From a virus (taxonomy: Duplodnaviria; Heunggongvirae; Uroviricota; Caudoviricetes), in the IMG/VR virus record IMGVR_UViG_3300037400_003300, positions 16,273 through 80,272 of that record: 64,000 bases of DNA. The stretch is one strand, 5' to 3'. Of this stretch, positions 7,758 to 26,393 are shown one piece after another (position 1 is the first letter of the stretch; every line of letters starts with the position of its first letter). A program made the translations under genes and the position numbers. The notes beneath the pieces are model-generated. The model was given only the letters and a program-made list of their open reading frames with translations, made no database searches and had not been told where the DNA came from.

Positions 7758-8559
7758 TTACCTCCAAAAGTTCAGCTGCAAATTCTCTATAATCGTCAGC
7801 ACCATTATTTGAGCCGTAGTTATATATTGAGCCTTTTGATAAAGCAACTTTCTTATCTGCAAGCTTAGTAACATCGGATATGTTCATAAAGCCTTGTACT
7901 TTCGGAATTGCCGCTGAGTCACGAATCGTTGTATTGAATGTATGAACAATAGATTCGTCAAGTCCTTTAAATTGTTCCTTGATATTACTCTGAACGGATT
8001 TTTTTCGTTCATATTTCGTGAGAAGAACACCATAAACTTCAAGTGAAGGATTAAGTTCTTCTTGAATTTCACCAATATTCTCTAAAAGAGATGCAAGACC
8101 ATCAATAGCAAAGGTCTCCGGTTCCATTGGAATAATTATGCCATTGGATGCAGTTAATACATTATCCATCATTATGCCTGCTGAGGGACCAGAATCCATG
8201 ACTATAACATCATAATCTTTTTCAATCGGCATGATTGCATTTTTTAATTTAGTTTCCCTTGCTTTAGCATTGATAAGTTCACCGATTGCTAATTTGAGTT
8301 TATTATTTGCCGGGGCTATGTCACCCATAGCATTGCCTTTAACTATGATCTCTGAAAGAGGAACTTTTTTTAAGATAGCATCATAGATAGTAAGCTCGTT
8401 TTCATTTACTTGAAAAACTTTACTAGAATTTCCCTGGGGATCGAAGTCGATAAGTAAGACCTTATAACCAATTTGAGTTAATGCGTCTGTAAGACAGATA
8501 GCAGTAGTTGTTTTACCTACACCACCCTTTTGATTTACAATTCCAATTTTAATAGCCAT
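7741..8559 (-). CDS. parA: ParA/Soj-type partition ATPase
   Basis: deviant Walker A KGGVGKTTT at N-terminus. Confidence 0.85.
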   Translation of the reverse strand: MAIKIGIVNQKGGVGKTTTAICLTDALTQIGYKVLLIDFDPQGNSSKVFQVNENELTIYDAILKKVPLSEIIVKGNAMGDIAPANNKLKLAIGELINAKARETKLKNAIMPIEKDYDVIVMDSGPSAGIMMDNVLTASNGIIIPMEPETFAIDGLASLLENIGEIQEELNPSLEVYGVLLTKYERKKSVQSNIKEQFKGLDESIVHTFNTTIRDSAAIPKVQGFMNISDVTKLADKKVALSKGSIYNYGSNNGADDYREFAAELLEVIGSGK

Positions 8560-8580
8560 TTTTTAACCATCCTCTCTTAA

Positions 8581-8597
8581 TTTTCGGAATCCGAAAA
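8581..8597. promoter_or_regulatory. third TTTTCGGAATCCGAAAA palindrome in parA promoter region
   Basis: identical palindrome 22 bp upstream of parA start codon. Confidence 0.45.
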
Positions 8598-8628
8598 TAT
8601 TGATAAATATTTAACAATGTTTATATAA

Positions 8629-8819
8629 TCAGTTCCAATCTAAGTTAATTTTCTTTTTCTTTTTTGCACAGTAGATTAGATATTGATTGATAAGTGTCTG
8701 ATAGGGAATACCAGATACAGAAGCCTGATCTCTAAAGTATTTGACAGCATCAGCACTTACTTCCATTGTTACCCTTTGTTTTTTGATAAAAGGGATTTCG
8801 GTTTGAGAATCCATCATTG
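8629..8819 (-). CDS. BrnA/CopG-like ribbon-helix-helix protein (orphan antitoxin-like)
   Basis: VTMEVSADAVKYFRDQ...GIPYQTLINQYL motif; GGAGG RBS before MMDSQ; TGTGTATAAT extended -10 upstream. Confidence 0.5.
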
Positions 8820-9077
8820 CATACCTCCATAATAGATTTTCAATTAAAAATCGAATATGCAAATTATACACATTAAAAATACATTTGGCAAGAGTTAATT
8901 TTATTTTGGCAACAACAATCCCTTTTTTGTTGTTGTTTATAAAAGAGTAAATTAATAGATAAAGTATATTAATAATAGATACGTATATTAATAAATATAA
9001 TATATAACAACAATATTCTTTTATTAATTAGGGAAACAAGAAATGGCTTAAATACTGGGTTTGAGGCGCGTTAGTGT

Positions 9078-9244
9078 GTGCAAATATGGGAGTAATTGCG
9101 TGCAAATATGGGAATAATTGCGTCTAAATATGGGAGTAATTGTGTGCAAATAGCGGATTTTTCCAAAAAATAAATTGTGTATTAAAAGCGGAAAAGTTGT
9201 GTGCAAATATGGGAGTAATTGTGTGCAAATTTGGGAGCGGTGAA
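9078..9244. repeat. iterons: 4 tandem + 2 further 22-bp repeats GTGCAAATATGGGAGTAATTG(C/T)
   Basis: direct repeats at 9078, 9100, 9122, 9144 (partial), 9201, 9223; AT-rich surroundings; upstream of rep. Confidence 0.7.
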
Positions 9245-9546
9245 TAGTGATTTTGGTAAAATGCGTACAAAAAGCGGATATGGGTAAAATTACGGCAATT
9301 TTTGTGCATAATACCAAATAAAATATTAATTTGCGATAACCATATTACAATAAAACAACTATAAATCGAATTGTCAAAACATTTAAACCGCATATCTGTG
9401 GGATAAATTAATCATGAACAAAAAGAGGGTGGCAATTTTTGTAAATTGTGCATAAAAAGCGGAAATTTATATTGTAATTCATAATTTTTTATGATAAATT
9501 TGTAATTAAGTGCACAAAAAGAGTAATTTAAGTAATAAGGGAATTA

Positions 9547-10767
9547 ATGAAAAAAAGTAACAACGATTGGCTAATTAAAGTTTATTTTACGAAAAGCAAT
9601 AATCTAATCACATCAAAAAGCCGAATGACAATTATCGGAAGGAAGGTATTAGATGCTGCGATTATGAATGTCCGGGAGACATATGATGAGTATGGGAATC
9701 CTATAATAAAAGCAGACATCGATGGACAGGAACTAAAGAAATTCATTGGAAGAGATTATAACTCAATATATGACACAGTAAAAAGCCTGATTAAACCTAA
9801 ATCACAGAAAGGGGCCGATGCATTAAAACCATCTCTTCTTGATTGGAAAGTCATTATAGCCGATGACGATAGACAACAGATCATTGGAATAAATGTTATC
9901 ACATTAGCGAAGTATACTAATGGAAAATTATCTATAGTTTTTAATAACGCTTTAAAGCAAAATCTTATTGGGCTAAAGAAGAATTATACTATGCTCAATA
10001 GGGATATAATCTCCAAATTTTCAAGTAATTATTCATATCAGCTCTACCAGATTTTCAAAAAGACAATTGATAAAGAATTAAGCAGATTAAAAGAAGATGG
10101 GATTGATAATGGCAATCATCCATTTGAGCTTATTTTTGACATAATTGATCTTAAAGTTCAGCTTGGAGTAATAGAAGCAAGCGAAAACGACATTTTATAT
10201 AAAGCAATAATGAATAATAATGTCTGCACCTATGAAGAGGTTATCAGGATTGATGACGATGAACTTGTAGAAAGACTTACAGAAAGTAGGAACTTCAGAA
10301 GATATGCTGTAGAAAAAGCAAAAAAAGAGATAAATGAAATCTCTGACATAAAGATGGATTATAAGCCGATATACGGAGGCAAAGGCGGAAAGACGGTAGG
10401 CTTTAAATTTTTCATTCAGTATAAAGAAATTGAAAAGGAAAAAGAAGAAAAAGAGCCTGACGAAGTAGATATATTTGAATTTATTGATAAGGTCCGGGAG
10501 ATAATAAAAGAGCCTGTTTTAAGCAGTAAAGAGATAAAGAGTATATCGGATGCAGCTGGGTATGACCTTGATAAGATTAAAAAAGCTTATAACGTATATC
10601 AGCAACAAGACAATGTAAGAAATGTTCCTGGATTTATCATAGATGCGATTAAAAATGATTATAAGGAACTTCCAGGAAAGAAAAAATCACCTGCTCATTT
10701 TGGCATGGAAAGGGAATATACACCGGAATTTTTTAGCGAACTTGAAAAAAGACTTGTAGAAAATTAA
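9547..10767 (+). CDS. rep: iteron-type plasmid replication initiator (Rep_3/RepA-like)
   Basis: N-terminus NNLITSKSRMTIIGRKVLDAAIMNV resembles the Rep_3 N-terminal pattern; sits next to the iterons. Confidence 0.6.
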   Translation: MKKSNNDWLIKVYFTKSNNLITSKSRMTIIGRKVLDAAIMNVRETYDEYGNPIIKADIDGQELKKFIGRDYNSIYDTVKSLIKPKSQKGADALKPSLLDWKVIIADDDRQQIIGINVITLAKYTNGKLSIVFNNALKQNLIGLKKNYTMLNRDIISKFSSNYSYQLYQIFKKTIDKELSRLKEDGIDNGNHPFELIFDIIDLKVQLGVIEASENDILYKAIMNNNVCTYEEVIRIDDDELVERLTESRNFRRYAVEKAKKEINEISDIKMDYKPIYGGKGGKTVGFKFFIQYKEIEKEKEEKEPDEVDIFEFIDKVREIIKEPVLSSKEIKSISDAAGYDLDKIKKAYNVYQQQDNVRNVPGFIIDAIKNDYKELPGKKKSPAHFGMEREYTPEFFSELEKRLVEN

Positions 10768-11115: not shown

Positions 11116-11664
11116 ATGATTAGCTTAGATTATGTAAAAGAACATATCAGTGAGATTGAATTTGATAACTGGCTTCATCAGTGCAGATTTACAAAGAGGT
11201 TTGTTGACTTTTTACCGACAAGTGAGTGGAAAAAGTTTGGATTTGAGTATCAAGGAAAAGAAGAACATATACCTAAAGAGTGGACAGAGGAAAATGTTAT
11301 TACCCAGCTTAAGTATGACCTTGATTTTGCGATTGAGAAAGCGCTTGGTCAAAGGGGAATGTCAGCAAGCCTTATGAATGATGTTTTAAGGTCATGGTGC
11401 ATAGTCCTTGAGAATGGGCTTGAAAATATAGATTACGGATGGTATGGAGATAGTCTTATCAAAGCAATCGATGAATACTATGATTTTGGGTTATACGAAG
11501 AAACAAAAGAAGGGTTTATTGAAAGCAGATTGCAATGTTTCAAAGATTCAATCTTTAAAATATTGCAAATGGATGGATATAAGATCAAAGTCGATGAAGA
11601 TGTCATGACTGTTGAGCTTGGTGATATCTGCACAGCAAAGATACAGATAACTAAAGGGGATTAA
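11116..11664 (+). CDS. hypothetical protein
   Basis: ORF track. Confidence 0.45.
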   Translation: MISLDYVKEHISEIEFDNWLHQCRFTKRFVDFLPTSEWKKFGFEYQGKEEHIPKEWTEENVITQLKYDLDFAIEKALGQRGMSASLMNDVLRSWCIVLENGLENIDYGWYGDSLIKAIDEYYDFGLYEETKEGFIESRLQCFKDSIFKILQMDGYKIKVDEDVMTVELGDICTAKIQITKGD

Positions 11665-11667
11665 GGC

Positions 11668-12198
11668 ATGGATGATATTATCTTTATGATGGCAAAAGAA
11701 TATTGTGGTGGAAATATTGGCGCTTTATCTTTCTTCTGTGAAGGATTAAAATTTGACACCATGAAAGCAAATGAAGGCTTTGCCAGAATGTATGAAAATG
11801 GGATAACTAATGAAAAACTCTATATGCTCTGGAATGATTGTTGTGATAGGGATACTAAAAGAGCAGTATATATAATGCTTCATGATAATATCGATAGTAT
11901 TCATAAGCATATCAATTATGGTAATGGCAGGGGAATACCGTATACAGAAGCCGAACCTGAACCATATAAGAGAGAAAAAGATGGAGAGTGGTATATATTC
12001 ACTTTCCTAAATGACGGAAAGAAAAATAGTGGGAAATGTGTCAAGATAAAAGGCACTTATGGCGAAGCAAGAGAAAAGATGGTTGATAAATATGGAACTC
12101 ATTTTGCTTTTCAATATCCGGAAGAAGAATGGGAAACAAATTGGAATAACCCGGATAGATTTTATCGAATGGAAGATATTATAGAAATAATAGATTGA
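11668..12198 (+). CDS. hypothetical protein
   Basis: ORF track. Confidence 0.45.
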   Translation: MDDIIFMMAKEYCGGNIGALSFFCEGLKFDTMKANEGFARMYENGITNEKLYMLWNDCCDRDTKRAVYIMLHDNIDSIHKHINYGNGRGIPYTEAEPEPYKREKDGEWYIFTFLNDGKKNSGKCVKIKGTYGEAREKMVDKYGTHFAFQYPEEEWETNWNNPDRFYRMEDIIEIID

Positions 12199-14950: not shown

Positions 14951-15254
14951 TGAAACAATTCTTGTTGAAATAGTAAGAGTAAATACAAAAGAAGTAGCTG
15001 CATTATATCTTCAGGATTATATTCAGAGCAATGGCTTTTTAAGTAATGAAGCTGGGGATATAATCAAAAAGCTATTAAAAGAAAAAGATGATAAACCTAA
15101 GCCTGATGTAAAACCAAATATAGAACAGATGATAAAAGAAATAGAGGAACTTCCTGATACCATTTATAGCGGCAGCATAATGGATGTAACAGGTGTTTCC
15201 TGTAAAAATATGAAGGATAAAGTCATTGAAATCATTAGAAAATACTCCAAATAA
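14937..15254 (+). CDS. hypothetical protein (paralog of 12761)
   Basis: QSNGFLSNEAG motif. Confidence 0.4.
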   Translation: MLNLNETILVEIVRVNTKEVAALYLQDYIQSNGFLSNEAGDIIKKLLKEKDDKPKPDVKPNIEQMIKEIEELPDTIYSGSIMDVTGVSCKNMKDKVIEIIRKYSK

Positions 15255-15576
15255 TCAAATAGGACAACGTATCAAGTATTTGTTAATCCATAATAGAATG
15301 AACCAAAGGGACCTTGCAGATAAAGCAGGCATTACGTATACATCTTTATCTAGGTATATTAACGGCGAGCGCACTCCGAACAGTAAAATCTTGGCAAAGA
15401 TTGCTACTGCGCTTAACATAGATGCAAACTTTTTACTTGGAATAAATAAAGACATAGAAGATCCGGAGAAAGATTTTTATAAGGCCCAAAGATTAACGGC
15501 AAGAAGTGCTGATAAATGGACTAAGAAACAGAAAGCAGAATTAATCCTTGCGATAATGGGAGTTAATAATGATTAA
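15226..15576 (+). CDS. XRE-family helix-turn-helix transcriptional regulator
   Basis: IGQRIKYLLIHNRMNQRDLADKAGITYTSLSRYINGERTP HTH_3 pattern; stop overlaps tnpB-like start. Confidence 0.6.
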   Translation: MKSLENTPNNQIGQRIKYLLIHNRMNQRDLADKAGITYTSLSRYINGERTPNSKILAKIATALNIDANFLLGINKDIEDPEKDFYKAQRLTARSADKWTKKQKAELILAIMGVNND

Positions 15577-16735
15577 ATCAATCAAAGTAATGCTACTTCC
15601 TAATAATTTTCAAAAAACAAGGTTTCATCAACACGCGGGAGCAGCAAGATTTCTTTATAACTGGGCACTTGCAAAAGAAGAAGAGAATTACGAAGCAGGC
15701 GGAAAGTTTATTTCTTATTATGAACTTGCAAAAGAGCTTACAGAGATTAAGAAAACAGATGAATATGCATGGCTAAATGATATATCTGCTTGTACTTGTC
15801 AGGCTGCGATTAAAGATGCTTGTGACGCTTATAATAATTTCTTTAAAAAACGAGCCAGGCATCCAAAATTCAAATCAAAGAATAAATCGGCCCCTAGTTT
15901 TGCACAAACAGATCAGGCTATAGAGTTTACTTCTACACATGTTAGACTTAGCAGTTTATCTAAAAGTCTTAAAAGGAATAGAAAAAAACTAAACTGGGTA
16001 AGGCTTGCCGAACATGGCAAGATACCAATAAATGTAAAGCATAGCAATCCAAGGATAACTTTTGATGGCATAAATTGGTGGATTAGTGTAGGAATAGACT
16101 ATCCGGAAAATGATGTTAAATTATCTGAGGAGGGATTAGGTGTTGATCTGGGAATAAGGAACCTTGCTGTATGTTCTGATGATAACATTTATCCTAACAT
16201 CAATAAGACCAAGGCGATCAAAGATTTAGAGAAAAGAAAACGAAGATTGCAACGAAGTATATCCAGGAAATATGAGATGAACAAAAAGGGGGATGAATTT
16301 GTTAAGACAAAAAATATAATAAAAGATGAGAAAAAGTTATTAAAGATGCATCAAAGGTTGAGTAATATCAGGAAAAATTATCTGCATCATACATCCAAAG
16401 AGATTGTCGGAAAGAATCCTAAATTTATTTGCATTGATGATCTTAATATTCAAAGCATGATGAAAAACAAGTATCTTGCAAAAGCTTTTCAAGAACAGTC
16501 TCTTTACGAATTTAGCAGGCAGCTTGAATATAAGAGCAATTTTAAAGGAATTAAATTTATACGAGCAGATAGGGACTATCCATCATCAAAGAAATGTAGC
16601 ATTTGTGGAAGGATAAAGAAGAATTTAAAGCCTTATCAAAAGTTATATAAGTGTGAATGTGGAAATGTAATTGATATTCATAAGCAAGCTGCATTAAATC
16701 TTAAATCTTATGGTGAAGATATTATTGCAGAATAA
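15569..16735 (+). CDS. tnpB: TnpB-like (IS200/IS605 OrfB family) RuvC-fold protein; Cas12/TldR-like candidate
   Basis: OrfB N-terminus; RuvC-I GVDLGIRNLAV (D193); RuvC-II ICIDDLNIQSM (D290 in place of the canonical E); zinc finger CSICG...CECG; RuvC-III region DIHKQAALNL (H371 in place of D). No tnpA nearby. Confidence 0.8.
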   Translation: MIKSIKVMLLPNNFQKTRFHQHAGAARFLYNWALAKEEENYEAGGKFISYYELAKELTEIKKTDEYAWLNDISACTCQAAIKDACDAYNNFFKKRARHPKFKSKNKSAPSFAQTDQAIEFTSTHVRLSSLSKSLKRNRKKLNWVRLAEHGKIPINVKHSNPRITFDGINWWISVGIDYPENDVKLSEEGLGVDLGIRNLAVCSDDNIYPNINKTKAIKDLEKRKRRLQRSISRKYEMNKKGDEFVKTKNIIKDEKKLLKMHQRLSNIRKNYLHHTSKEIVGKNPKFICIDDLNIQSMMKNKYLAKAFQEQSLYEFSRQLEYKSNFKGIKFIRADRDYPSSKKCSICGRIKKNLKPYQKLYKCECGNVIDIHKQAALNLKSYGEDIIAE

Positions 16736-16910
16736 TAATATTGTACCGGAAGCTGGTCCGGGAATTTACGCCTACGGAGTGTACTTGAACTTGTTAGTAG
16801 ACAGCACCACCGTCGAAAGCATACACGATGAAGTAGGAATGGAACATATAAGTATATCTTATTATAAGTTTTCAGCCGGGAGTAATCCCTTGCATCTTAA
16901 TAATTTGACC
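16736..16910 (+). other. leader / possible scaffold-RNA region between the tnpB-like gene and the array
   Basis: non-coding; CCGGAAGCTGGTCCGG and CAGCCGGGAGTAATCCC hairpin potential. Confidence 0.3.
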
Positions 16911-17338
16911 TTTTAGAAGTATGTAATTTTGCATAGATGTAAAGCCTGGCACTAAAGAAAGACATAGAGGTATGTCTTTTAGAAGTATGTAATTTTGCAT
17001 AGGTGTAAAGCACAGCTTTCAGACATATCTTTATAGCCAAAACTTTTAGAAGTATGTAATTTTGCATAGATGTAAAGCTAGACATGCTGAGATAGTTTGC
17101 TGTGATTACTTTTAGAAGTATGCAATTTTGCATAGGTGCAAAGCTACTGTGATGAAGACTACGTTGCTTTTAACTAGAAGTATGTAATTTTGCATAGGTG
17201 TAAAGCACCATCTTTCCATCAGCATATCCATCGCCTCTTTTAGAAGTATTCAATTTTGCATAGGTGTAAAGCTGATTTCATAAAAAAGACATATGAGGAT
17301 TTCTTTTAGAAGTATGCTTTTCCATGTAGATGCAAAGC
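16911..17338 (+). CRISPR. CRISPR-like array: 7 repeats of 35 nt (TTTTAGAAGTATGTAATTTTGCATAGGTGTAAAGC) with 6 spacers of 23-32 nt
   Basis: repeats at ~16911, 16977, 17044, 17110, 17168, 17238, 17304; internal hairpin UAUGUAA-UU-UUGCAUA with a compensatory C/G change in repeats 4/6; period ~66 nt. Confidence 0.55.
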
Positions 17339-17835
17339 GGGCCACATCGCATCACGATTTAAAGATATGCAATATTACATAGATGCAAAGCTGGCAGTAT
17401 CTTATAAGAAGCTATTTAAACTTCTAAAGGTATCTAAATTTGCATGGATGCAAAGCGTTTACGATATTGGAAGGGAATTAGTTTGCATTGATGCAAAGCA
17501 GCAAATAATTCTGATGTAAAGCCTACGTTCTCATGACAAGAGAAATCAATTATTACTTCTAAATAATTGCAAAGCAAATATGGTTATATTTTTAATGCAA
17601 AGCAAATGTATTTATGTTTTTGATGCAAAGCCAGATCGTTTTTTGGGTTGATAATATTTTTAGAAGCTTGACAAACCATACACCAAACTCATTAAAGCAA
17701 GCTTCTTTAAATTTATCAAGATGCAAAGCGACGGATAGATACATTGATATGAAAGGTCAATAGCAAAGTGAAGAATGTGTTTGAAGAAGAAGCAAAGCGG
17801 GCGCGAGATGATTTTCTAAAGGTGTAAAGCTAAGG
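17339..17835 (+). repeat. degenerate distal repeat relics of the array
   Basis: more than 10 units ending ...GATGCAAAGC / GTAAAGC with decaying similarity. Confidence 0.5.
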
Positions 17836-17867
17836 ATGTTCATAAGCGGTAGAAAGAGGGAAGCAAA

Positions 17868-18077
17868 ATGAGTCCAGAAGTAACTAGAATAGTTTTATGT
17901 ATGCTTAGTATAAATGTTATGATTTTATCGTATTTAACACTAAAAATAACCATACAGCAGCGGCACACACTCTTATTGATTGAAGATATTATAAAAGATA
18001 TGAAAAATAATAAATACAGTGAAACACTTGCAGATATAAAAAATTATACCGGAGGAAAAAGAAGTGAAAACAAATGA
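17868..18077 (+). CDS. small membrane protein
   Basis: hydrophobic N-terminus. Confidence 0.35.
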   Translation: MSPEVTRIVLCMLSINVMILSYLTLKITIQQRHTLLLIEDIIKDMKNNKYSETLADIKNYTGGKRSENK

Positions 18078-18264
18078 GTTAGATCAGAGAATTGAAAAAG
18101 CAAGAAAGAGAGTAAAAGAAAGTAAGGCTGCATATGACAGGGCATCTAAGGAATTAAAGAATCTATTGGAAAAAAAGAAATTGATACAAGCAGATGAGAT
18201 CATGGATGCAATAGCGAAAAGCGGTAAAACATACGAAGAAGTTCTTCAATCAATTACTGCATAA
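18064..18264 (+). CDS. small coiled-coil protein
   Basis: ORF track. Confidence 0.35.
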   Translation: MKTNELDQRIEKARKRVKESKAAYDRASKELKNLLEKKKLIQADEIMDAIAKSGKTYEEVLQSITA

Positions 18265-18377
18265 TCAGCAAGATAGTGTTCAAGATATGCAATGTTTAAC
18301 TGTGTAAAATATGCTACTATTATTTCAGGTGGTAGCGGTTCCCTTGATAGTAATTGATAGGGAGGAACGGCATCGAT

Positions 18378-18494
18378 ATGGATTATATCAAGTTAGTAAC
18401 AGCTATTGTAGCAGTGATTAACTGCTTGATTAACATTATCGAGCTTGTTCTCAAATTTATAGAGAATAAGAAAAATAATAAAAACCGCTCCTGA
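18378..18494 (+). CDS. 38-aa hydrophobic peptide MDYIKLVTAIVAVINCLINIIELVLKFIENKKNNKNRS
   Basis: GGGAGG RBS; conserved in copy 2; basic C-terminus. Confidence 0.4.
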   Translation: MDYIKLVTAIVAVINCLINIIELVLKFIENKKNNKNRS

Positions 18495-18516
18495 CCTGCG
18501 AAGTCGAGCGGTTTTT
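18482..18516 (+). terminator. rho-independent terminator overlapping the peptide stop codon
   Basis: AACCGCTCCTGACCTGCGAAGTCGAGCGGTTTTT. Confidence 0.5.
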
Positions 18517-18601
18517 AAATTGACTTAACTTCAAGGGCATCGCTACCACTTGTTTAATCTATTATAACACGTAGTAATATTTTATCAACAGGAGAAAATT
18601 A

Positions 18602-18805
18602 ATGCCAAGAAGCGAAGCAAAAAGACGAGCTGATAATAAATACAATCTGGCTCATTATACGGTGCTTGGTTGCAAGATGAAGATAACAGAGGCAGAAGAG
18701 TTTAAAACGGCCTGCAAGGGCTCAGGAACAACCCCTAATGCTGTCTTTAGAAAAGCAATAGAAAACTTTATGAAGAATTATAATAGCGGGGTAAAAGATG
18801 TCTGA
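18602..18805 (+). CDS. small DNA-binding protein (RHH/excisionase-like) upstream of recombinase
   Basis: position and size; basic N-terminus. Confidence 0.35.
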   Translation: MPRSEAKRRADNKYNLAHYTVLGCKMKITEAEEFKTACKGSGTTPNAVFRKAIENFMKNYNSGVKDV

Positions 18806-19814
18806 GAATAAGAGTCAATACACTGATAAGATCAATAAGCTTTTAAATGAAATGCCTGATTTTGTTTCAGATTTTATTTATAACTTTGGCCGGGTTGAGA
18901 ACTATGCGACTAAACTTGAATATTGCCGGGACATAAAGATTTATCTTGAATTTATTGCTAATTATCTTAATGACAATTGCGAAAAGAGTATCAGGGAACT
19001 GTCAATAAAGGATGTTTCTAATATAGAGATCCTTGATATAAATAGATTTCTAACAACACTTTCAGGAAATCACAAGGAATCAACCGTAAAAAGGAAACGT
19101 GCCTCATTATCAAGTATGTACGGATTTTTTGTAGCTACAGGTAAAATGTCTCGCAATCCAATTGCAGCTACTAAGACAATAAAGGTTCCAAGTAAAGAGG
19201 TTGTTTATTTAACTAACGATGAACAACGGATATTTCTCAATACTGTAAGGCATGGAACTAAGCTTCGGGACTCAATTGCAAAGGTCCATTATATCTATGC
19301 TGATAGAGATTCGGCCATGTTTATATTACTTCTGGATACCGGCCTTCGTGTTTCCGAGATGCTTGATACGGATATTATTGATTATAATCTTGAAGAGTGC
19401 AGCGTTGTTGTTACAAGGAAAGGTGGCGATACTCAGATAGTATATTATTCCGATGAGTGCAGAGATTATCTTAAAAAATACTTTGATGCTCAAAAGGCTA
19501 AATATGGATTATCAGAAAAGAATTTAAAATTTCCCGCTTTCACTACTTCTACCGGCAATAGATTGGGAGTACGTGCGGTTGAGATCCTTGTAAAGAAATA
19601 TGTATCTGTATGCCTTCCGGACAAAACAAAGATAATATCACCACACAAATTAAGATCGAGTTTTGCTATGAGTTTCTATGCTGCAAGTGACAATGATATT
19701 CTACTTCTAAAAAAGAAAATGAACCATAAAAGCATACAGACAACAAACATATATGCAAAAGCCTCTGATACAGCCATGAAGGAATCAAGGTCATTGCTGC
19801 AGGGATTAAGATAA
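18798..19814 (+). CDS. tyrosine site-specific recombinase / integrase (XerC/D-like)
   Basis: LLLDTGLRVSE (R), HKLRSSFA (HxxR), TTNIYA (Y). Confidence 0.8.
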   Translation: MSENKSQYTDKINKLLNEMPDFVSDFIYNFGRVENYATKLEYCRDIKIYLEFIANYLNDNCEKSIRELSIKDVSNIEILDINRFLTTLSGNHKESTVKRKRASLSSMYGFFVATGKMSRNPIAATKTIKVPSKEVVYLTNDEQRIFLNTVRHGTKLRDSIAKVHYIYADRDSAMFILLLDTGLRVSEMLDTDIIDYNLEECSVVVTRKGGDTQIVYYSDECRDYLKKYFDAQKAKYGLSEKNLKFPAFTTSTGNRLGVRAVEILVKKYVSVCLPDKTKIISPHKLRSSFAMSFYAASDNDILLLKKKMNHKSIQTTNIYAKASDTAMKESRSLLQGLR

Positions 19815-19819
19815 AATAA

Positions 19820-19856
19820 AAGCTGCTTGAGTAAATCTCAAACAGCTTTTTATATT
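19820..19856. terminator. bidirectional terminator between convergent genes
   Basis: AGCTGCTTGAG-TAAAT-CTCAAACAGCT hairpin followed by a T-run. Confidence 0.45.
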
Positions 19857-20985
19857 AAACATATTGCTTCTCATGTTGATGACTTGCGATCACATTAGCA
19901 AGCCCGGCCTTATCAGAATCACTAACAAAACATCCCTGTGCACGTATTGGCTTGTTACCACCTTTTTTAATAAGCATATCGCCCCTTCCGAAAAGTTTTT
20001 CTGCACCTGTTTGATCTAAGATAATACGGGACTCCATAGAACTAGAAGTGTTAAGCGCAATTCTAAATGGGAAGTTAGCTTTAATAAGGCCCGTAACAAC
20101 GTCATGTCTAGGCGACTGAGTTCCTATGATAAGATGTATACCGCAGCCCCTTGCTTTCTGGGCAAGCCTTACAATGTATTCTTCAACCTCTCTGTTTTTC
20201 AGAATAAGATCGGCAAACTCGTCAATAATACATATTTCTCTTGATAATTCATGGCCTTTTGAATGGTATTCATCTATATCATCACAGCCATTTTTAGCAA
20301 GAAAAGCGTAGCGACTTTCCATAGAAGCACATAGCCTTGATAGAAGAGAATATGCTTCATGTTCATTACTAACAAGGTTGATATAGGTATCTTTATATTT
20401 ATTAAATTCAGTTCCCTTCATATCAATAACGTCAATGATATTACTTGTTACATCATTTGATCTTGACGTTGCATAAATGCTATGCATTAGAAGGGAAGCA
20501 AGTATAGAGTGGATAGTCTCAGATTTACCGCTTCCGGTTGTACCCGCTATTAGAATATGCGGGGCCTTGGCAATGTCTGTATAAACAGCTTTTCCATTAA
20601 GATCCTGGCCAAGTACAACGGAAGTCATACTTGTACTATCATGGAATTTATCTGTATATAGGCTGCCAAAAGGAATAACATTAAACGTCCCTTGTCTCTC
20701 AATAACAATTGTATCAGCAGTCTGATAGTAGGATATATTATCTGATCTAAGGGCGGCTGCAAGCGTAGATTCAATAGCTTTCTTGGCCCTGAGTATCTTT
20801 CCATTTAGTGTAACATCCAAAGGAAGGTTGATAATATACCTAACTACCTGTGCGCTTTCTTTAACGTCATTAACTCTAAGGCCATACTGTTCAAATATCC
20901 TGTTAATGTTTGAAATATCCTGTGATTTTAATGGATAGCTATTATTTGAACATACTGTATTTAGATTTAGATTTCTGAATGCCAT
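19855..20985 (-). CDS. FtsK/SpoIIIE-family DNA translocase ATPase
   Basis: Walker A GTTGSGKSE, Walker B ICIIDEFADL. Confidence 0.75.
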   Translation of the reverse strand: MAFRNLNLNTVCSNNSYPLKSQDISNINRIFEQYGLRVNDVKESAQVVRYIINLPLDVTLNGKILRAKKAIESTLAAALRSDNISYYQTADTIVIERQGTFNVIPFGSLYTDKFHDSTSMTSVVLGQDLNGKAVYTDIAKAPHILIAGTTGSGKSETIHSILASLLMHSIYATSRSNDVTSNIIDVIDMKGTEFNKYKDTYINLVSNEHEAYSLLSRLCASMESRYAFLAKNGCDDIDEYHSKGHELSREICIIDEFADLILKNREVEEYIVRLAQKARGCGIHLIIGTQSPRHDVVTGLIKANFPFRIALNTSSSMESRIILDQTGAEKLFGRGDMLIKKGGNKPIRAQGCFVSDSDKAGLANVIASHQHEKQYV

Positions 20986-21003
20986 GTTTTAACCTTCTCT
21001 CAA

Positions 21004-21342
21004 TTACTTTATGTATATTGCAACGGTATGATTTTCTTCATTCTCATTAAAATCATCAACGATACAATCATAGTGATCTTGATTTAATTCGTATCTTGTC
21101 TCATTCTTATAGATATACACTCTTTTCTTAAGTTCATCATATGAATATGCTTCGAAATAATTGAATTCGAGATAATGTACAAGTACAGTCCTGACATCAA
21201 TAGTACCAAAACGAAAAGTCATATTATCACCGTCTCCATAGTATACATCAAAGTTGGGAAGATGATCTTTTAATGTTTTGATAATAACATCCCAAGACTT
21301 ATCGTTACAGTTTTCAGCTTCAAAATTTACTTCATTTATCAT
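21004..21342 (-). CDS. hypothetical protein
   Basis: ORF track; conserved AGAGGTTTAAAAAT-ATG start context. Confidence 0.4.
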   Translation of the reverse strand: MINEVNFEAENCNDKSWDVIIKTLKDHLPNFDVYYGDGDNMTFRFGTIDVRTVLVHYLEFNYFEAYSYDELKKRVYIYKNETRYELNQDHYDCIVDDFNENEENHTVAIYIK

Positions 21343-21372
21343 ATTTTTAAACCTCTCTTTTTCTATAAAAAT

Positions 21373-21663
21373 TTATTCGCTATCATTTGATTCGATAATT
21401 TCTGCATCAAGTCCGTAATATTGGGACTTTTCATGGAGTTCTTTTTCGGCTTCTGCTTTTGTTTCAAAACCTTCGCTATAGATATATCTAGCTTTATTGA
21501 ACACATAATATTTTTTCATTTTTGTATCGTCAACAATATTCCAGCCTTCTTTTTCTATTTCTTCATTCGTGAAATATGCATGGAGTTGTTGTTCTGCTTC
21601 CTGAATGTTTTTCGCATAGGAAAATTCCATGTATTCACTATTATCATTTATTGCATAGAACAT
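21373..21663 (-). CDS. hypothetical protein
   Basis: ORF track. Confidence 0.4.
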   Translation of the reverse strand: MFYAINDNSEYMEFSYAKNIQEAEQQLHAYFTNEEIEKEGWNIVDDTKMKKYYVFNKARYIYSEGFETKAEAEKELHEKSQYYGLDAEIIESNDSE

Positions 21664-21672
21664 ATTTTAACC

Positions 21673-22005
21673 TCATATTTTTACTGAAATAGCATTATTA
21701 AGATTATTAGCAATTTCCATTAGAGTATCTTTTGCCTCTTGGCAGTCATCAAGTAATTCCCTGATCGAACTAGGGACACCGTTTTCGCCTCGCATATTGA
21801 CATAAATTTCAACCTCAGCATCAACATCATAATTCTCTGCGTATGCAGTAAACTTATCAACAAGGTTTTCAACAGTCCCGTCATAATCAATTTCAACCGG
21901 AATATCCTGGCCGGCTGTATCGGTCCAAAATTCAATAAGTGCAGAATCCTTTTTTATTTCATAAGATATTCCCATATTATCTAAAACTTCTTCAATTCTT
22001 TTCAT
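21673..22005 (-). CDS. hypothetical acidic protein
   Basis: ORF track. Confidence 0.4.
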   Translation of the reverse strand: MKRIEEVLDNMGISYEIKKDSALIEFWTDTAGQDIPVEIDYDGTVENLVDKFTAYAENYDVDAEVEIYVNMRGENGVPSSIRELLDDCQEAKDTLMEIANNLNNAISVKI

Positions 22006-22039
22006 ATTATTTACCCTTGTTTTTAACCTCTCTCTTTAT

Positions 22040-22336
22040 TTAACAACCTATAACTTGTCTTACAACATTCTTAAGCATAACCTCATACTTGTGCCAGTCA
22101 TCATCTGTGGGTTGAATAGTGGAATACTTCACAAAATCCATTCCAAAAATACCTAATGCGTTCTGATCTAACCAATGCCATAGACTGTTTCTATTAGCAT
22201 TGGTAAGTTTTATTCGCAGATCGGTTGTAAAACCATTACAAAATCTAATTGCTTTTATTGCCTCATTATCAAGTGTAATTTTAAAATTATCCTTATCAAC
22301 ACTAGCTTTCATTAGTAACCTCATTTCTTTATACAA
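22040..22336 (-). CDS. hypothetical protein
   Basis: ORF track. Confidence 0.4.
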   Translation of the reverse strand: MYKEMRLLMKASVDKDNFKITLDNEAIKAIRFCNGFTTDLRIKLTNANRNSLWHWLDQNALGIFGMDFVKYSTIQPTDDDWHKYEVMLKNVVRQVIGC

Positions 22337-22566
22337 TCTCTATTTGCTGCCACTTCATCTGGATAAAAGATTTCTACAATGGTGGTGTACGACTCATTAA
22401 GCAAGTTAGCAAGCTTGAAAATAAAAGCTATTTCTATTTTCTGGCGTATGCCATTAACTCTTTTATTCATGTTAGGATAATCGATTTTACTTTGAAGGCA
22501 AAAATCGCGTAGTGAAGTGTAACCTTTTTTCTTTAATAAAGCATTGAACATTTCTTTTGTTGACAT
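22321..22566 (-). CDS. XRE/Cro-like HTH regulator
   Basis: KGYTSLRDFCLQSKIDYPNMNKRVNG...IEIAFIFKLANLLNES. Confidence 0.5.
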   Translation of the reverse strand: MSTKEMFNALLKKKGYTSLRDFCLQSKIDYPNMNKRVNGIRQKIEIAFIFKLANLLNESYTTIVEIFYPDEVAANRDCIKK

Positions 22567-22614
22567 TGTTTTACCTCGCTATGTTATTTTGTACCATTGT
22601 ATCACCTATCAGAA

Positions 22615-22833
22615 TTAATTTCTACATTCATTTGATCGAATTAAATCAATTAATTCAGTTGCTTTTTTATATTCTGCGGACTCAATATCCCAGTTCCAGT
22701 CTTTTCGCATTTCTATAAGATTATAGAGAATATCTGAAATAGACATATCACTATGAATACTATCACGGTCCGCAGTCTCAAAAGGATCTACAAAGTCCAA
22801 AAACTCAATATACTTTGTATAAATACTTGCCAT
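22615..22833 (-). CDS. hypothetical protein
   Basis: ORF track. Confidence 0.35.
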   Translation of the reverse strand: MASIYTKYIEFLDFVDPFETADRDSIHSDMSISDILYNLIEMRKDWNWDIESAEYKKATELIDLIRSNECRN

Positions 22834-22837
22834 ATCT

Positions 22838-23296
22838 TTAACCCCATTCCGCTTCTTTCATTTCCGGCATACGCCACACAATGTTATTTGTTATAGCTAT
22901 TTCAAGTTCCTTTAATGCCTTAAATAAATCAGTCTTAATAGTAGAATCCTCGCTAACCTGATAAATATAGCAAGAGAGTGTCTTTAAAAGCTGATATTCC
23001 CAAGGCTGCGGCGCTTTTTCAGTATCAATCGGATGATATAATGTCTTATAATCTTTTGGCATTTCAACATCAATATCACAGTCGGCCTCATAACGGTTAT
23101 TAAATGCAGCCACATTAAATGCATAAAGCTTTTTGAATATTTCCTTTGTAGGTGTAGAATGGTAGCCAAGGTTAAGGGCCTCATTTAACAATCTTGGAAT
23201 AGAATATCCAAAATAATCATAACCAAAATCATTTAATGTCTTGATATAGTCCGCAAGGCCGGCGATCACTTCTTCTTTCATAATAAAACAACTCAT
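22838..23296 (-). CDS. hypothetical protein
   Basis: ORF track. Confidence 0.45.
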   Translation of the reverse strand: MSCFIMKEEVIAGLADYIKTLNDFGYDYFGYSIPRLLNEALNLGYHSTPTKEIFKKLYAFNVAAFNNRYEADCDIDVEMPKDYKTLYHPIDTEKAPQPWEYQLLKTLSCYIYQVSEDSTIKTDLFKALKELEIAITNNIVWRMPEMKEAEWG

Positions 23297-23347
23297 TTTT
23301 AACCTCTTTTCTTATGTTTCCAGGGGCCTTGCCCCCGGAAAATATAT

Positions 23348-24280
23348 TTATTTTACGATTTCTTTTATTTCTGCATAGGAAACTTGGCCTTGTATTGGCG
23401 TTCCGTCTGCATATACCATATGCTTTTCCAAAAATTCAAATGTTATATTTTTGCTGCCGCCTCTCAAATAGCGTACATTGCCCCACTTTTCAACATTGAC
23501 GATCATTCCTTTTTTCAATGATTTACGATCAATTATTCCGCCTTGCTGCTGGATAAGCGCGTCATAATATGCGGCCTTCTCAATGTTTGTTTCAATTATT
23601 TCCATAGCATTGTCAATATACTTGTTATATTTGTCGCTATCGTCGGGATACTTTTCGATCATTTCTTTATAGTATTCAACATTGCGATTTTGTGCGCGAA
23701 TAGTCTTTTCCGCATCGTCAATACGACGTTGACAAAATCCCTTGGAAGGAATCTCTTTTGCCTGCCTTGCAATTTCCGCACGCTGCAAATAATATTCAGA
23801 CTTGCGAAATTCCTCAAAACCTTTTTCATAGCTTGCCCACATTCTATTGCGTTTATTAGTAAAGGCCCGGCCAGCAGATGTATTAATGTTCGGTTGCGTA
23901 AAAAATGCTATATCACCATGCATACTATTTATCGGCGCTTGCAATTGTTCGGCGCGTTGTTCGGCTTTTTCTGCCTTGTATTTGTAGCGATCGGCCCGGC
24001 GTTCTGCCTTCTCAATGCGCCTGTTTTCTTGGTCCTCAAATGACAATCTTTCGCCGATGGTTCCTTTATTCTCTAAACCTAAATTCAATGCGATTTCGCG
24101 CGGTCTATAAAGATGTGGGAACTTGCAACGACTAATCCATGCAGCAGATCGACGACTAAAAAGGAAATTACTTTTAATTGCTGATTTGTCGTCATTAGAT
24201 AATGACATATATTTTTCCTTGTCGAAATGCAATTCAATTTTTCCAGTTTCCTTGTTTTCAATAAAATAATTTTCAGACAT
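23348..24280 (-). CDS. hypothetical coiled-coil protein (start of CpG-rich island)
   Basis: ORF track; KAEKAEQRAEQLQ coiled coil. Confidence 0.45.
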   Translation of the reverse strand: MSENYFIENKETGKIELHFDKEKYMSLSNDDKSAIKSNFLFSRRSAAWISRCKFPHLYRPREIALNLGLENKGTIGERLSFEDQENRRIEKAERRADRYKYKAEKAEQRAEQLQAPINSMHGDIAFFTQPNINTSAGRAFTNKRNRMWASYEKGFEEFRKSEYYLQRAEIARQAKEIPSKGFCQRRIDDAEKTIRAQNRNVEYYKEMIEKYPDDSDKYNKYIDNAMEIIETNIEKAAYYDALIQQQGGIIDRKSLKKGMIVNVEKWGNVRYLRGGSKNITFEFLEKHMVYADGTPIQGQVSYAEIKEIVK

Positions 24281-24295
24281 AATAAACCTCTTTTC

Positions 24296-24505
24296 TCATA
24301 GATATGAATAAATAAAATTATCAATAGCAACAGAGTCTTTTTTATTTAAAAGATCCTGTAATATATTTGCTTCTTTTGCGGTTATAAGTCTTTTCACACG
24401 TTTAAAGCCATTGGCATATACGTTATTAAATCTATTATATTCCGCATATATTCCAGTCTTTTCTTTTATCAATTTAAGATTTCGATCAATAACTTTTCCT
24501 GGCAT
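24296..24505 (-). CDS. hypothetical protein
   Basis: ORF track. Confidence 0.35.
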   Translation of the reverse strand: MPGKVIDRNLKLIKEKTGIYAEYNRFNNVYANGFKRVKRLITAKEANILQDLLNKKDSVAIDNFIYSYL

Positions 24506-24511
24506 ACGTTT

Positions 24512-24874
24512 TCACCCCTCTATATATTCTTTTCGATAGCTATTCCATGTATCCAATAGCCATTTAATATCACTACCAAAAGTACATTCATTGTCTATTA
24601 CGTCACCCGCGGCGTCAATAGGGCAATTCCAGTCCATATCATAGTCGCACTGCATTATAGAATTGCGCGGCTGCATTGCGATCTTACCAAACAATGTATA
24701 ATCGCCGGTATTTTCATAGTCCATGTAAGCAAAACAAACTGCATACAGATTGTCATTATCCCTAAATAGCGGGCAAAACCACGTACCGGAATAGTCTTTT
24801 GTCGTCAATGCTTCTTTTGCGACGTTCATAACATTATCAATCATTGCTTTTTCTTTTAATTCTCTATAAATCAT
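24512..24874 (-). CDS. hypothetical protein
   Basis: ORF track. Confidence 0.4.
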   Translation of the reverse strand: MIYRELKEKAMIDNVMNVAKEALTTKDYSGTWFCPLFRDNDNLYAVCFAYMDYENTGDYTLFGKIAMQPRNSIMQCDYDMDWNCPIDAAGDVIDNECTFGSDIKWLLDTWNSYRKEYIEG

Positions 24875-24890
24875 TTTTCAAAACCTCTTT

Positions 24891-25631: not shown

Positions 25632-25885
25632 AAATCATAAATAAATGAATACATGACTTCCATATCTGAAATACACGGTGTTTTATTCATTTCATTTATA
25701 AAATTTATGTGTTCTGAAAAATCATTATCTGAAAGTTTGCAAGCTTCTTTTGCTTGTAAAACAATCAAGTCATTTAAACTTTTTCCATGTTTTTGTAATG
25801 CGAGATTATTTAATTCTTTTTTCAGATCGTCGTTTACGTCAAAAAATTTAATGTATGCATTTAATAAAGAATTGTATTTATCCAT
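25628..25885 (-). CDS. hypothetical protein
   Basis: ORF track. Confidence 0.35.
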   Translation of the reverse strand: MDKYNSLLNAYIKFFDVNDDLKKELNNLALQKHGKSLNDLIVLQAKEACKLSDNDFSEHINFINEMNKTPCISDMEVMYSFIYDF

Positions 25886-25904
25886 TTTTTCACTAAACCT
25901 TTTT

Positions 25905-26378: not shown

Positions 26379-26393
26379 GTTTTTAACCTCTTT

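Follow-up and report, generated by a model that had tools for sequence, protein, structure and literature searches.

An immobile TnpB-derived gene on phage-plasmids

The window analysed here is the whole stretch of 64,000 nucleotides taken from the virus record IMGVR_UViG_3300037400_003300. On its plus strand, positions 15569-16735 encode a TnpB-derived effector of 388 aa, of the IS607/RAGATH-18 lineage, whose three RuvC positions read D193, D290 and H371. It is preceded on the same strand by a gene for a 116-aa protein with an XRE/Cro-C1-type HTH (15226-15576; Pfam HTH_3, 1.3e-13; PHROG transcriptional regulator families). The end of this gene overlaps the start of the effector gene by 8 nt, so that the two are probably co-transcribed. 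The HTH gene occupies the same position in L001, L002, L006, L007, L053, L054 and L055, and is absent there in L003.

The effector gene lies between the XRE regulator and integrase/FtsK, a synteny conserved across phage-plasmids with dS above 1.5, and genes for ParA, Rep3, integrase, FtsK and portal are found in its context. Among the families listed for related loci, no recombinase/TnpA family stands beside it, and the Pfam lists for the called genes of these loci hold no Cas1/Cas2 family. The effector gene is immobile and has a fixed place on ParA/Rep3/integrase phage-plasmids. Loci L011 and L013 were considered as independent insertions from which IS ends and a TAM could be read, and were rejected because both lie in the same phage region.

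The Pfam domains of the effector are HTH_OrfB_IS605, OrfB_IS605 (RuvC) and Cas12f1-like_TNB (zinc ribbon), and the zinc finger is kept, with all four cysteines invariant (C343, C346, C362, C364). An AF2 model of the protein (pLDDT 85.7) has as its best Foldseek match 8IAZ, the ISFba1 TnpB, and confidently predicts a TnpB fold. Strong purifying selection acts on the gene (dN/dS of 0.04-0.10, with dS up to >2), whose product is functional. A full-length ORF is preserved in 15 clusters, and the truncated members are P0016 and P0017/L055.

The RuvC site compared with solved TnpBs and near relatives

A preliminary description of this DNA had read three RuvC motifs in the effector, and both motifs and numbering were found to be exact: GVDLGI contains D193, ICIDDLN contains D290, and DIHKQAALNL contains D369, I370, H371 and Q373. 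The codon of D193, the RuvC-I catalytic Asp (16145-16147, + strand), is intact and the residue is invariant across the clade and its relatives. The RuvC-II site is the D290 codon (16436-16438, + strand), and I370 and H371 are encoded by 16676-16681 of the same strand, H371 (16679-16681) being at the site of the RuvC-III catalytic Asp.

The same description had equated D290 with the catalytic Glu of TnpB and H371 with its catalytic Asp, and HMMER alignment to solved TnpBs agrees. Effector segment CGNVIDIHKQAALNLK pairs with ISDra2 CGETHDRDENAALNIR, which puts H371 on D361, and D290 of ICIDDLN falls on ISDra2 E278; the corresponding ISFba1 residues are D371 and E290. The best PDB match of the effector is again the ISFba1 IS607 TnpB, 8IAZ (phmmer E 1.7e-67). 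Its catalytic residues D194, E290 and D371 have each been mutated, and cleavage depends on all three (PMC11061315). The deposited 8IAZ chain itself has D371A, at the same site as H371 of the effector. It had been anticipated that D369 might turn out to occupy the catalytic position and make the protein an active nuclease; in the alignment it falls instead on the first Asp of DRD, away from the catalytic position, and since it is also Gly in P0012 it was rejected as a substitute. Another candidate for compensation in the window protein, D336, was discarded as variable within the clade, and a search across the clade found no conserved acidic residue gained. The ISFba1 residues that read the TAM are also replaced in the same alignment (N61T, N62E, K80C, K83Q, N121T, N122H), at sites that vary within the clade as well.

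We compared 16 close members, which we call the clade, with the 103 nearest TnpB relatives (~60% identity). E290, R370 and D371 are each kept in 103 of 103 relatives, whereas none of the 16 clade members has an intact triad. Position 371 is H in 14 members, N in 2 and D in none, so that the replacement of the RuvC-III catalytic Asp by His371, proposed for the window protein, concerns a site lost throughout the clade; position 370 is I or V, in place of the R found in all relatives. Position 290 is D in 12 members and E in 4, thus acidic in 16 of 16, and position 291 alternates between D and N. Gln373 is the normal residue of the intact relatives (DRDxQA). Because E290D is polymorphic and Gln373 ancestral, only the RuvC-III change defines the clade. 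The earlier statement that two catalytic positions are non-canonical is therefore true of the window protein, but E290D is not fixed, and the Asn-to-Gln change at 373, which had been counted as a further defect, is uninformative. Every member retains D193 and an acid at position 290, more than a fully dead site would require.

Judging from these sequences, the RuvC-III replacement is not due to chance. Positions 290, 291, 293, 296, 335, 338, 342, 345, 370 and 371 are invariant in the relatives and polymorphic in the clade, and the relaxed sites cluster in RuvC-II, in the strand and zinc-finger region before RuvC-III, in RuvC-III itself and in the TAM-reading region. The array-less relatives of the clade retain the catalytic triad. 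Since the Asp is lost clade-wide, the pocket is relaxed, no new acid has appeared and the protein is under purifying selection, the effector is most likely a nuclease-impaired RNA-guided binder, and cleavage of target DNA is predicted to be lost or strongly reduced.

Histidine can ligate metal in nucleases of the RNase H fold, as in the DEDH site of Argonaute, H983 of Cas9 and H143 of Thermus RuvC. One alternative, which we take seriously but consider unlikely, is that nuclease activity persists in a non-canonical RuvC site (D193, D/E290, H371 and possibly D369) and that the effector cuts rivals like a miniature type V or TranC system. The RuvC-I Asp and an acidic RuvC-II residue in every member, together with His in 14 of 16, speak for it. 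It also has a precedent in the TnpB branch RIIIr-4, represented in viruses, where a conserved RuvC-III Asp-to-His change was argued to leave the protein active (Altae-Tran et al., PNAS 2023, PMC10691335). RIIIr-4 is, however, a different lineage, with an RHH/MazE partner and no C4 zinc finger, whereas here the zinc finger is intact, an XRE HTH protein is encoded upstream, His alternates with Asn, and the nearest relatives, at ~60% identity, are canonical DRD TnpBs. Moreover, the site does not resemble a conserved rearranged one: His has become Asn in two independent members, E and D interchange at position 290 and D and N at 291, R370, absolutely conserved otherwise, has been lost and its neighbours are relaxed, no compensating acid was gained, and D369 has a Gly counterpart in P0012. 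We also considered V-U24 of Altae-Tran et al., defined by a non-canonical RuvC-I and an HTH partner, and set it aside, as RuvC-I is canonical here.

Guide scaffold and repeat-spacer array

Wholly 3′ of the effector stop codon lies a putative guide-RNA scaffold (16736-16909, + strand), reRNA/omega-RNA-like and possibly tracr-like. It contains a RAGATH-18 motif at 16771-16839 (Rfam RF03064, 64.7 bits for a gathering score of 44.9, E 7.4e-12), followed by ~110 nt, compared with 67 nt in a listed IS607 reRNA. The scaffold is near-identical across loci L001-L010, and its first ~130 nt have homologues in the scaffolds of loci L011-L013, which have no array. Next comes a CRISPR-like array (16910-17456, + strand) of 9 recognisable 36-nt repeats (consensus CTTTTAGAAGTATGTAATTTTGCATAGATGTAAAGC) and ~30-nt spacers, in which the repeats grow degenerate with distance from the effector gene. 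The two arms of the repeat hairpin covary from one phage to another (TATGYA..TGCATA versus CTTGTG..ACAAG). The array ends in a degenerate trailer (17457-17830, + strand) with about ten irregularly spaced copies of the repeat 3′ end (GATGCAAAGC), nearly unchanged in L008, L010, L049 and L055.

Ten clade loci, the window included, were readable downstream of the effector gene, plus L055. The array directly adjoins the TnpB scaffold and runs in the same direction in the window, L001, L003, L006, L008-L010, L049, L052 and L053, and also in L055. Clade arrays hold 1 to 11 spacers, those of L052 and L053 being short or degenerate, and no array is present in the intact-triad relatives. Scaffold and first repeat run on without a break, and the 3′ segment of the L011 scaffold (CTGTTAAAAGTAT) resembles the 5′ part of the repeat; the 36-nt repeat was plausibly derived from the scaffold 3′ end. 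Co-folding gave a possible scaffold-repeat pairing, without covariation support. In L055, a deletion variant, the effector C-terminus and most of the scaffold are gone and five good repeat-spacer units remain.

Could the array serve another effector, for instance a host Cas9, with the TnpB-like protein a bystander, or only an RNA chaperone or processor? The geometry of 36-nt repeats and 30-nt spacers would suit this, and the repeat resembles those of type II-A, of which the S. pyogenes one would be identical to it at 24 of 36 positions. That the upstream end gains spacers with no element-encoded Cas1-Cas2 on record, and that L055 has five good units beside a truncated effector and scaffold, is also consistent with it. 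We nevertheless find it quite improbable: the array directly follows the TnpB scaffold and is oriented like it in all ten readable clade loci and L055, intact-triad relatives have no array, the 5′ part of the repeat resembles the scaffold 3′ segment of these relatives, and the effector itself is under strong purifying selection.

Spacer turnover and targets

The newest, scaffold-proximal spacer (spacer 1, 16946-16975, + strand) had been reported to match its own genome. The match is real, 30 of 30 nucleotides being identical to 30474-30503 (+ strand). This protospacer falls within a 56-aa ORF (30369-30539); it also overlaps the RBS region and the start of the ORF at 30502/30508-30864, and its 5′ flank, at the TAM position, reads ATGAC (30469-30473). 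Guide 1 is complementary to the template strand of an operon on the + strand, at an intragenic site ~1.8 kb inside it. No promoter-like site is listed over 30474-30503, the best such sites being at about 28.5-28.7 kb. The homologous sites of L010 and L003 differ from spacer 1 at spacer positions 6-9 and 29. Spacer 1 matches its own lineage's variant of this polymorphic site, at 30 of 30 positions; no spacers against the homologous site were found in L003 and L010. The L049 genome, 99.985% identical to the window, has the same protospacer but neither spacer 1 nor spacer 2. The spacer behind the self-match was thus acquired recently from the element's own DNA, and is not a conserved TldR-style guide. 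The self-match is known from one assembly; other contigs with an identical protein break at the array.

More generally, the window, L008, L010, L049 and L055 have a common trailer and different proximal spacers. New spacers enter at the scaffold-proximal end and losses occur inside the array; the recently gained spacers keep its exact periodicity. Another spacer (17207-17236, + strand) matches the related phage-plasmid L010 (IMGVR_UViG_3300028887_000107) at 27 of 30 positions, in a gene region missing from the window. A further one (17273-17302, + strand) resembles spacer 1 in the same register, with 15 of 28 positions identical and a 9-nt run, ranking 4th of 903 spacer pairs; it may have come from another phage with a diverged version of the spacer 1 target. 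No motif is common to the 5′ flanks of the candidate protospacers (ATGAC, CGTAT, CTATC/CAATC), as far as three flanks can tell. For about 40 other spacers no protospacers were found. A comparison of ~42 spacers with GenBank phages and PLSDB plasmids gave zero matches; in IMG/VR, three of the five spacers scanned hit nothing beyond the arrays themselves and the other two had no hit at all, and two scanned in JGI metagenomes had no match. One GC-rich L008 spacer matched 27 genomes and was discarded, because it is the reverse complement of the LSGGQ signature of ABC-ATPases and cannot be traced to a source. For three L008 spacers, the 60.5-kb contig that carries them contains no other exact copy.

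These observations bear on the proposal that the effector is a nuclease-impaired binder of the TldR type, a dedicated transcription factor that represses its own genome's gene at 30474-30503 through guide 1, the other spacers acting as extra regulatory guides. The impaired binder is, on the sequences, the likeliest reading, and that part of the proposal was retained. The rest, which relied on the self-match, found no support, as that spacer is the newest one and is missing in L049. The match is perfect, the guide pairs with the template strand of the + operon, the RuvC site has deteriorated, and the locus sits in the lysogeny region between the XRE regulator and the integrase, all of which would fit a regulator. 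However, the position of the target, ~1.8 kb into the operon and overlapping none of the listed promoter-like sites, speaks against repression at this site, and so do relatives that do not target it: L049 has the target but not spacer 1, and L003 and L010 hold the homologous site with no spacer against it. Regulation by fixed guides does not fit either, since spacer content varies among close relatives, one spacer matches a related phage, and the three L008 spacers lack a copy in their own contig; the first two points are what CRISPR-like interference would show. A dedicated TldR-type regulator thus appears improbable.

For an active nuclease, spacer 1 would be harmless if its protospacer lacks a TAM, or the window would be a short-lived, doomed variant. 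The flank ATGAC, which is unlike the AGGAG and GAGGG TAMs of characterised IS607 TnpBs, fits the first possibility, and the presence of spacer 1 in the window and not in L049 is also in keeping with a cutting effector.

Lastly, the locus could be a decaying, functionless transposon remnant, a pseudogenising TnpB followed by relic repeats. The triad is broken, P0016 and P0017/L055 are truncated, and the arrays of L052 and L053 are short or degenerate, as expected of decay. Pseudogenisation was rejected on the dN/dS values, which stay low up to high dS with the full-length ORF preserved in the 15 clusters. Conservation of the scaffold, covariation of the repeat hairpin and recent spacer gain with exact periodicity likewise contradict a relic, which we regard as highly improbable.

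Discussion

We favour, with somewhat better than even confidence, the view that this locus is a cleavage-impaired, TranC/type-V-like RNA-guided interference module of a temperate phage-plasmid, derived from an IS607-type TnpB and its RAGATH-18 guide RNA. Because a residue essential in the nearest tested relative is lost, the effector probably binds and blocks rival DNA instead of cutting it. Transcripts of the scaffold and the repeat-spacer units would load the effector with guides of about 30 nt, and the complex would bind DNA of competing phage-plasmids without efficient double-strand cleavage, blocking transcription or replication like Cas12m or Cas12c. Repeat-spacer units would have to be used without the RAGATH-18 core, and spacers acquired without Cas1-Cas2 of the element, integration presumably passing through a host adaptation complex. 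Those acidic residues that remain may have a part in RNA processing. The self-derived spacer 1 would have been taken accidentally and tolerated since binding is not lethal, and could lower expression of the late operon beyond 30.5 kb. Because the three 5′ flanks give no TAM motif, the self-target may also be simply unlicensed rather than tolerated.

The closest characterised system is that of the ISFba1 IS607 TnpB (Ren et al., Cell Res 2024, PMC11061315). The two proteins are of similar length (388 and 387 aa), share domain order and zinc finger, and the Foldseek match to 8IAZ is at 36% identity. In both systems the scaffold, with RAGATH-18, lies wholly downstream of the ORF, and the guide 3′ of the scaffold. 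Unlike ISFba1 TnpB, the clade has His or Asn for D371 and Ile or Val for R370, and the readers of the AGGAG TAM are replaced; unlike the IS element, its locus is immobile, without TnpA, and has a multi-spacer array in place of one guide.

With TranC, the module shares a TnpB-sized effector of IS605/IS607 TnpB descent, a downstream CRISPR array, no adaptation genes and a repeat that is plausibly a split-off omega-RNA 3′ end. The type V/TranC features seen here are a TnpB-family effector with a downstream array in the same orientation, and spacers that vary, with polarised gain. Described TranCs are active nucleases used for editing, whereas the RuvC-III Asp is lost here. LaTranC (PDB 9JFO/9JFQ), the TranC compared, is distant, with a phmmer E of about 3e-13 over the C-terminal third.

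TldRs (Wiegand et al., PMC10705468) are likewise TnpB descendants on temperate phages that have left the transposon with a deteriorated RuvC and entered a new conserved gene neighbourhood. Each has a single adjacent guide whose promoter target is conserved, and in most of them the C-terminal ZnF/RuvC-III is missing (PMC10705468). In contrast, the effector described here is full length, with ZnF and RuvC-I intact, a changing multi-spacer array and a recent intragenic self-target.

The association of an array with a nuclease-dead effector had been expected to be new, which was overstated. Cas12m, Cas12c, Cas12k and the predicted V-O/V-P systems combine arrays with nuclease-deficient Cas12 and interfere by binding or transcription block (PMC11013384, PMC12669027). 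By analogy, the effector would most probably work like these nuclease-deficient type V effectors. The resemblance is functional only, as Cas12m structures rank 32-35 among the Foldseek matches, at 8-10% identity, and show no specific homology. Unlike Cas12m, Cas12c and Cas12k, the effector is much smaller, has a RAGATH-18 scaffold and is borne by a phage-plasmid.

A bolder reading, possible though tentative, is that we are looking at a living TnpB-to-CRISPR transition: a RAGATH-18/IS607 TnpB would have settled on phage-plasmids, its scaffold 3′ end multiplied into an array, host adaptation been borrowed, and cleavage and strict TAM reading abandoned in favour of binding-only silencing of rivals and occasionally of the phage's own late operon. 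If so, this would be the smallest known natural CRISPR-interference effector, at 388 aa, with a self-renewing array.

If the effector does bind without cutting, it would be a natural programmable DNA binder of 388 aa that takes multiplexed guides; being far smaller than Cas12m or dCas12f fusions, it would be of interest as a scaffold for CRISPRi and base editors. It would also mean that nuclease loss, the TldR route, and array gain, the TranC/Cas12 route, can coincide in one lineage, that phage-plasmids can turn such a system on their relatives, and that arrays without Cas1-Cas2 can still turn over. The window and L049, which are two proximal spacers apart, form a pair in which acquisition in trans and tolerance of a self-spacer can be tested.

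An ISFba1-type TnpB with an altered RuvC site

The TnpB-like effector is a 388-aa ORF (15569-16735, + strand) to which Pfam assigns three TnpB domains. Its motifs and numbering are those of the preliminary description: GVDLGI with D193, ICIDDLN with D290, and DIHKQAALNL with D369, I370, H371 and Q373. When all PDB chains were compared with HMMER, the top match was 8IAZ (E 1.7e-67), the IS607-family TnpB of ISFba1 (PMC11061315), followed by the ISDra2 TnpB chains 8BF8, 8EXA and 8H1J (E about 6e-34). In these alignments, effector CGNVIDIHKQAALNLK is paired with ISDra2 CGETHDRDENAALNIR, and counting residues back from 369 places H371 on ISDra2 D361 and D290 on E278. Cleavage by ISFba1 requires D194, E290 and D371, as assayed with the D194A, E290A and D371A mutants (PMC11061315); the deposited 8IAZ chain reads DRA where the wild type has DRD, and it is this engineered D371A that is aligned with the effector's His. 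With H371 on D361/D371 and D290 on E278, the replacement of the RuvC-III Asp and RuvC-II Glu reported earlier is confirmed. The AlphaFold model of the effector, a confident one (pLDDT 85.7), was closest in fold to ISFba1 TnpB.

A homologue search over 5.8 billion proteins recovered a tight clade (clusters P0001-P0015, 77-99% identity) and, beyond a gap, Lachnospiraceae-type TnpBs in the hundreds, about 60% identical. E290, R370 and D371 were invariant in 103 of 103 full-length relatives (motifs IEDL and DRDxQA). None of the 16 clade members has Asp at 371 (14 His, 2 Asn); all carry Ile or Val in place of R370, and at 290 twelve have Asp and four Glu. The change of Asn to Gln, also listed as a defect before, is not one, as Gln373 is the normal residue of intact-triad relatives. 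Within the clade, 28 of the 181 positions with at least 95% conservation in relatives vary; a first group lies in the part responsible for TAM reading in ISFba1 (54, 74, 79-85, 107, 114), a second in the RuvC pocket (290, 291, 293, 296, 335, 338, 342, 345, 370, 371). No conserved gained acidic residue able to restore the catalytic site was found in the clade alignment; D336, considered as a compensating acid, is present in the window but variable across the clade. D193 and all four cysteines of the zinc finger are invariant, and pairwise comparisons of the gene give dN/dS of 0.04-0.10 at dS values reaching above 2. The clade has lost the RuvC-III Asp and the Arg beside it, and its RuvC-II and TAM-reading residues are relaxed, while the remainder of the effector evolves under strong purifying selection.

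Judged from these residues, the effector is likely impaired as a nuclease. The main alternative is that a D-D/E-H site keeps the enzyme active, His being a ligand in several RNase H-fold nucleases. Moreover, a large TnpB branch with a RuvC-III His, RIIIr-4, was argued to be still active by Altae-Tran et al. (PMC10691335). RIIIr-4 is however a different lineage, without the zinc finger. The present clade has both His and Asn at 371 and both Glu and Asp at 290, and no member keeps the otherwise invariant Arg; we consider an active enzyme unlikely.

The effector gene belongs to a phage-plasmid

The effector gene occupies a single syntenic position, usually after and overlapping an XRE-type HTH gene, with small ORFs, an integrase and an FtsK-like gene downstream. 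Genes for ParA, a Rep3 initiator, a portal and a phage metallopeptidase are found on the carriers as well. In the window, region 6504-10767 holds a ParA-type ATPase (7741-8559, - strand) and a Rep3-family initiator (9547-10767, + strand), and the integrase (18798-19814), FtsK-like ATPase (19855-20985, - strand) and portal (36049-37599) follow. By this fixed synteny and gene content, the effector gene is immobile and is carried by a temperate phage-plasmid rather than an IS element. The element looks to be a phage-plasmid that has an integrase as well.

A guide scaffold followed by an array

The guide scaffold (16736-16909), near-identical across related loci, contains a RAGATH-18 RNA (16771-16839; Rfam score above the gathering score), the hallmark of the ISFba1-type guide RNA, whose scaffold is wholly downstream of the gene (PMC11061315). 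Its initial ~130 nt align with the scaffolds of array-less relatives (L011-L013). The effector descends from an IS607/RAGATH-18 TnpB.

Directly 3' of the scaffold, at 16910, starts an array of nine recognisable 36-nt repeats (consensus CTTTTAGAAGTATGTAATTTTGCATAGATGTAAAGC, 16910-16945) with ~30-nt spacers. The repeat hairpin covaries between phages, and the array is absent in relatives with an intact triad. Repeat length, 30-nt spacer size and repeat end motifs are all type II-A-like, and the consensus is identical at 24 of 36 positions to the S. pyogenes type II-A repeat. Cas1 and Cas2 families were absent from the Pfam lists for called genes of related loci, and none of roughly 20 window ORFs scanned matched either; given the II-A-like repeat as well, the element could be using a type II adaptation complex of its host.

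The array is followed by a degenerate trailer (17457 to approximately 17830) with copies of the repeat 3' end only, about ten of GATGCAAAGC or ATGCAAAGC at irregular spacings of 19-98 nt. It is conserved near base for base in four related loci (L008, 12037-12410; L010, 11695-12063; L049; L055), and may be an old decayed array. The trailer 9-10-mer is partly complementary to an invariant scaffold segment, CCCTTGCATCT (16883-16893).

Spacer turnover

The window and these four loci share the trailer and differ in their scaffold-proximal spacers. L049, an independent ENA assembly (ERZ27256908 k141_1839334), is 99.985% identical to the window (15384-30614) over 13.6 kb, and its first array unit is window spacer 3: the window holds two additional proximal units, in exact 66-67-nt register. 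Polarised spacer gain accounts for this difference, loss of exactly two proximal units being less likely. The two sequences thus serve as a natural before-and-after comparison for the gain of spacers by an array that has no adaptation genes nearby.

Arrays are short or decayed in L052 and L053. A recurrent deletion variant (P0017/L055, 10001-10954 of L055), found in 7 contigs from several samples, fuses effector codon ~288 to the 3' end of the RAGATH-18 motif at a GATGA microhomology. It removes the C-terminal third of the protein (RuvC-II, zinc finger and RuvC-III) and about 90 nt, most of the scaffold, leaving five good repeat-spacer units. Such decay and deletion are typical of an accessory module. 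In L052 (4347-4989), which has the Asn371 variant P0011 and a short decayed array, a HicA/HicB toxin-antitoxin pair lies just downstream.

Spacer targets

The self-matching guide proposed earlier was recovered: spacer 1 is identical to 30474-30503 (30/30). This protospacer is internal to a 56-aa ORF and overlaps both the start of the following ORF and its ribosome-binding region. None of the listed promoter-like sites overlaps it, and the best ones of the target operon are about 1.8 kb upstream. Homologous sites in L010 (20903-20932) and L003 (19849-19878) differ from spacer 1 at positions 6-9 and 29, and neither array holds a spacer against its own site; in L049, the identical protospacer is present and spacer 1 absent. 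Spacer 1 is therefore a recent pickup from its own lineage's DNA rather than an inherited regulatory guide, which leaves the model of a dedicated TldR repressor without its main support. The self-match fits a non-cutting effector, as cleavage would be expected to purge such a variant; the self-target may also be simply unlicensed.

Another spacer (17207-17236) matches the related phage-plasmid L010 (61-90) at 27/30, in a gene region absent from the window. One spacer of L008 (11708-11736, GCCGTCCTCTGCTTCTGCCCGCCCGAAAG) is GC-rich within an element of 36% GC; read in reverse complement, it encodes LSGGQKQR, the signature of ABC-transporter ATPases. Its matches fall in 27 genomes of several phyla, with 29/29 in a Bryobacterales MAG and in Butyrivibrio sp. 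LB2008, and it may be host-derived. Protospacer searches gave no match beyond three candidates, whose 5' flanks (ATGAC, CGTAT, CTATC/CAATC) hold no common TAM motif. Taken together, the spacers point to CRISPR-like targeting of relatives, in which sequence of the element itself or of a host is now and then picked up.

In both comparisons of a spacer with a related phage, mismatches cluster at protospacer positions 6-9, beside the TAM position; this would fit seed escape mutations, or with two cases may be chance. Spacer 17273-17302 is similar to spacer 1 when the two are compared in register. A second instance of this pattern comes from a single array of L001 (11444-11473, TATTTAGATGAAAAAGATTCAGAC..., and 11642-11670, TATAGAAATGAAAAATAAGCATAAC...): its two spacers are 18/28 identical in register and look drawn from one site present in diverged copies. 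In the 3' end of the XRE gene, CTTGGAATAAATAAAGACATAGA (15436-15458) agrees at 19 of 23 positions with the start of spacer 1 (its first 23 nt), probably by coincidence of A-rich codons, both encoding K-D-I-E.

Proposed mode of action and known systems

We propose that array-derived guides load onto the effector, and that the complex would bind DNA without efficient cleavage and interfere as a roadblock, on the model of Cas12m and Cas12c (PMC12669027). Spacers would be supplied by a host adaptation complex, and the retained acidic residues may serve RNA processing. Taken jointly, we hold this mechanism to be somewhat probable. Of the TldR-like reading in the preliminary description, the predicted nuclease impairment likely stands, the RuvC-III Asp being lost clade-wide; the dedicated self-repressor is unlikely, the self-target of spacer 1 being recent and intragenic. 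A cleavage-impaired miniature CRISPR-like interference system of phage-plasmids is a better description.

Some 50 independent origins of type V systems from TnpB have already been recognised, as have several separate inactivations of RuvC (PMC12669027), so that the system is not a new category. In the literature covered, we found neither a RAGATH-18 TnpB with an array nor one with this RuvC-III substitution. The effector is an ISFba1-type TnpB by descent, but departs from that family in catalytic site, mobility and single guide. TranCs are alike in architecture but are active nucleases. TldRs share nuclease decay and phage carriage, whereas here the array turns over and no promoter is a conserved target. 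Finally, in its probable mode of action the effector resembles Cas12m, Cas12c, V-O and V-P (PMC12669027), but it is unrelated to them in sequence.
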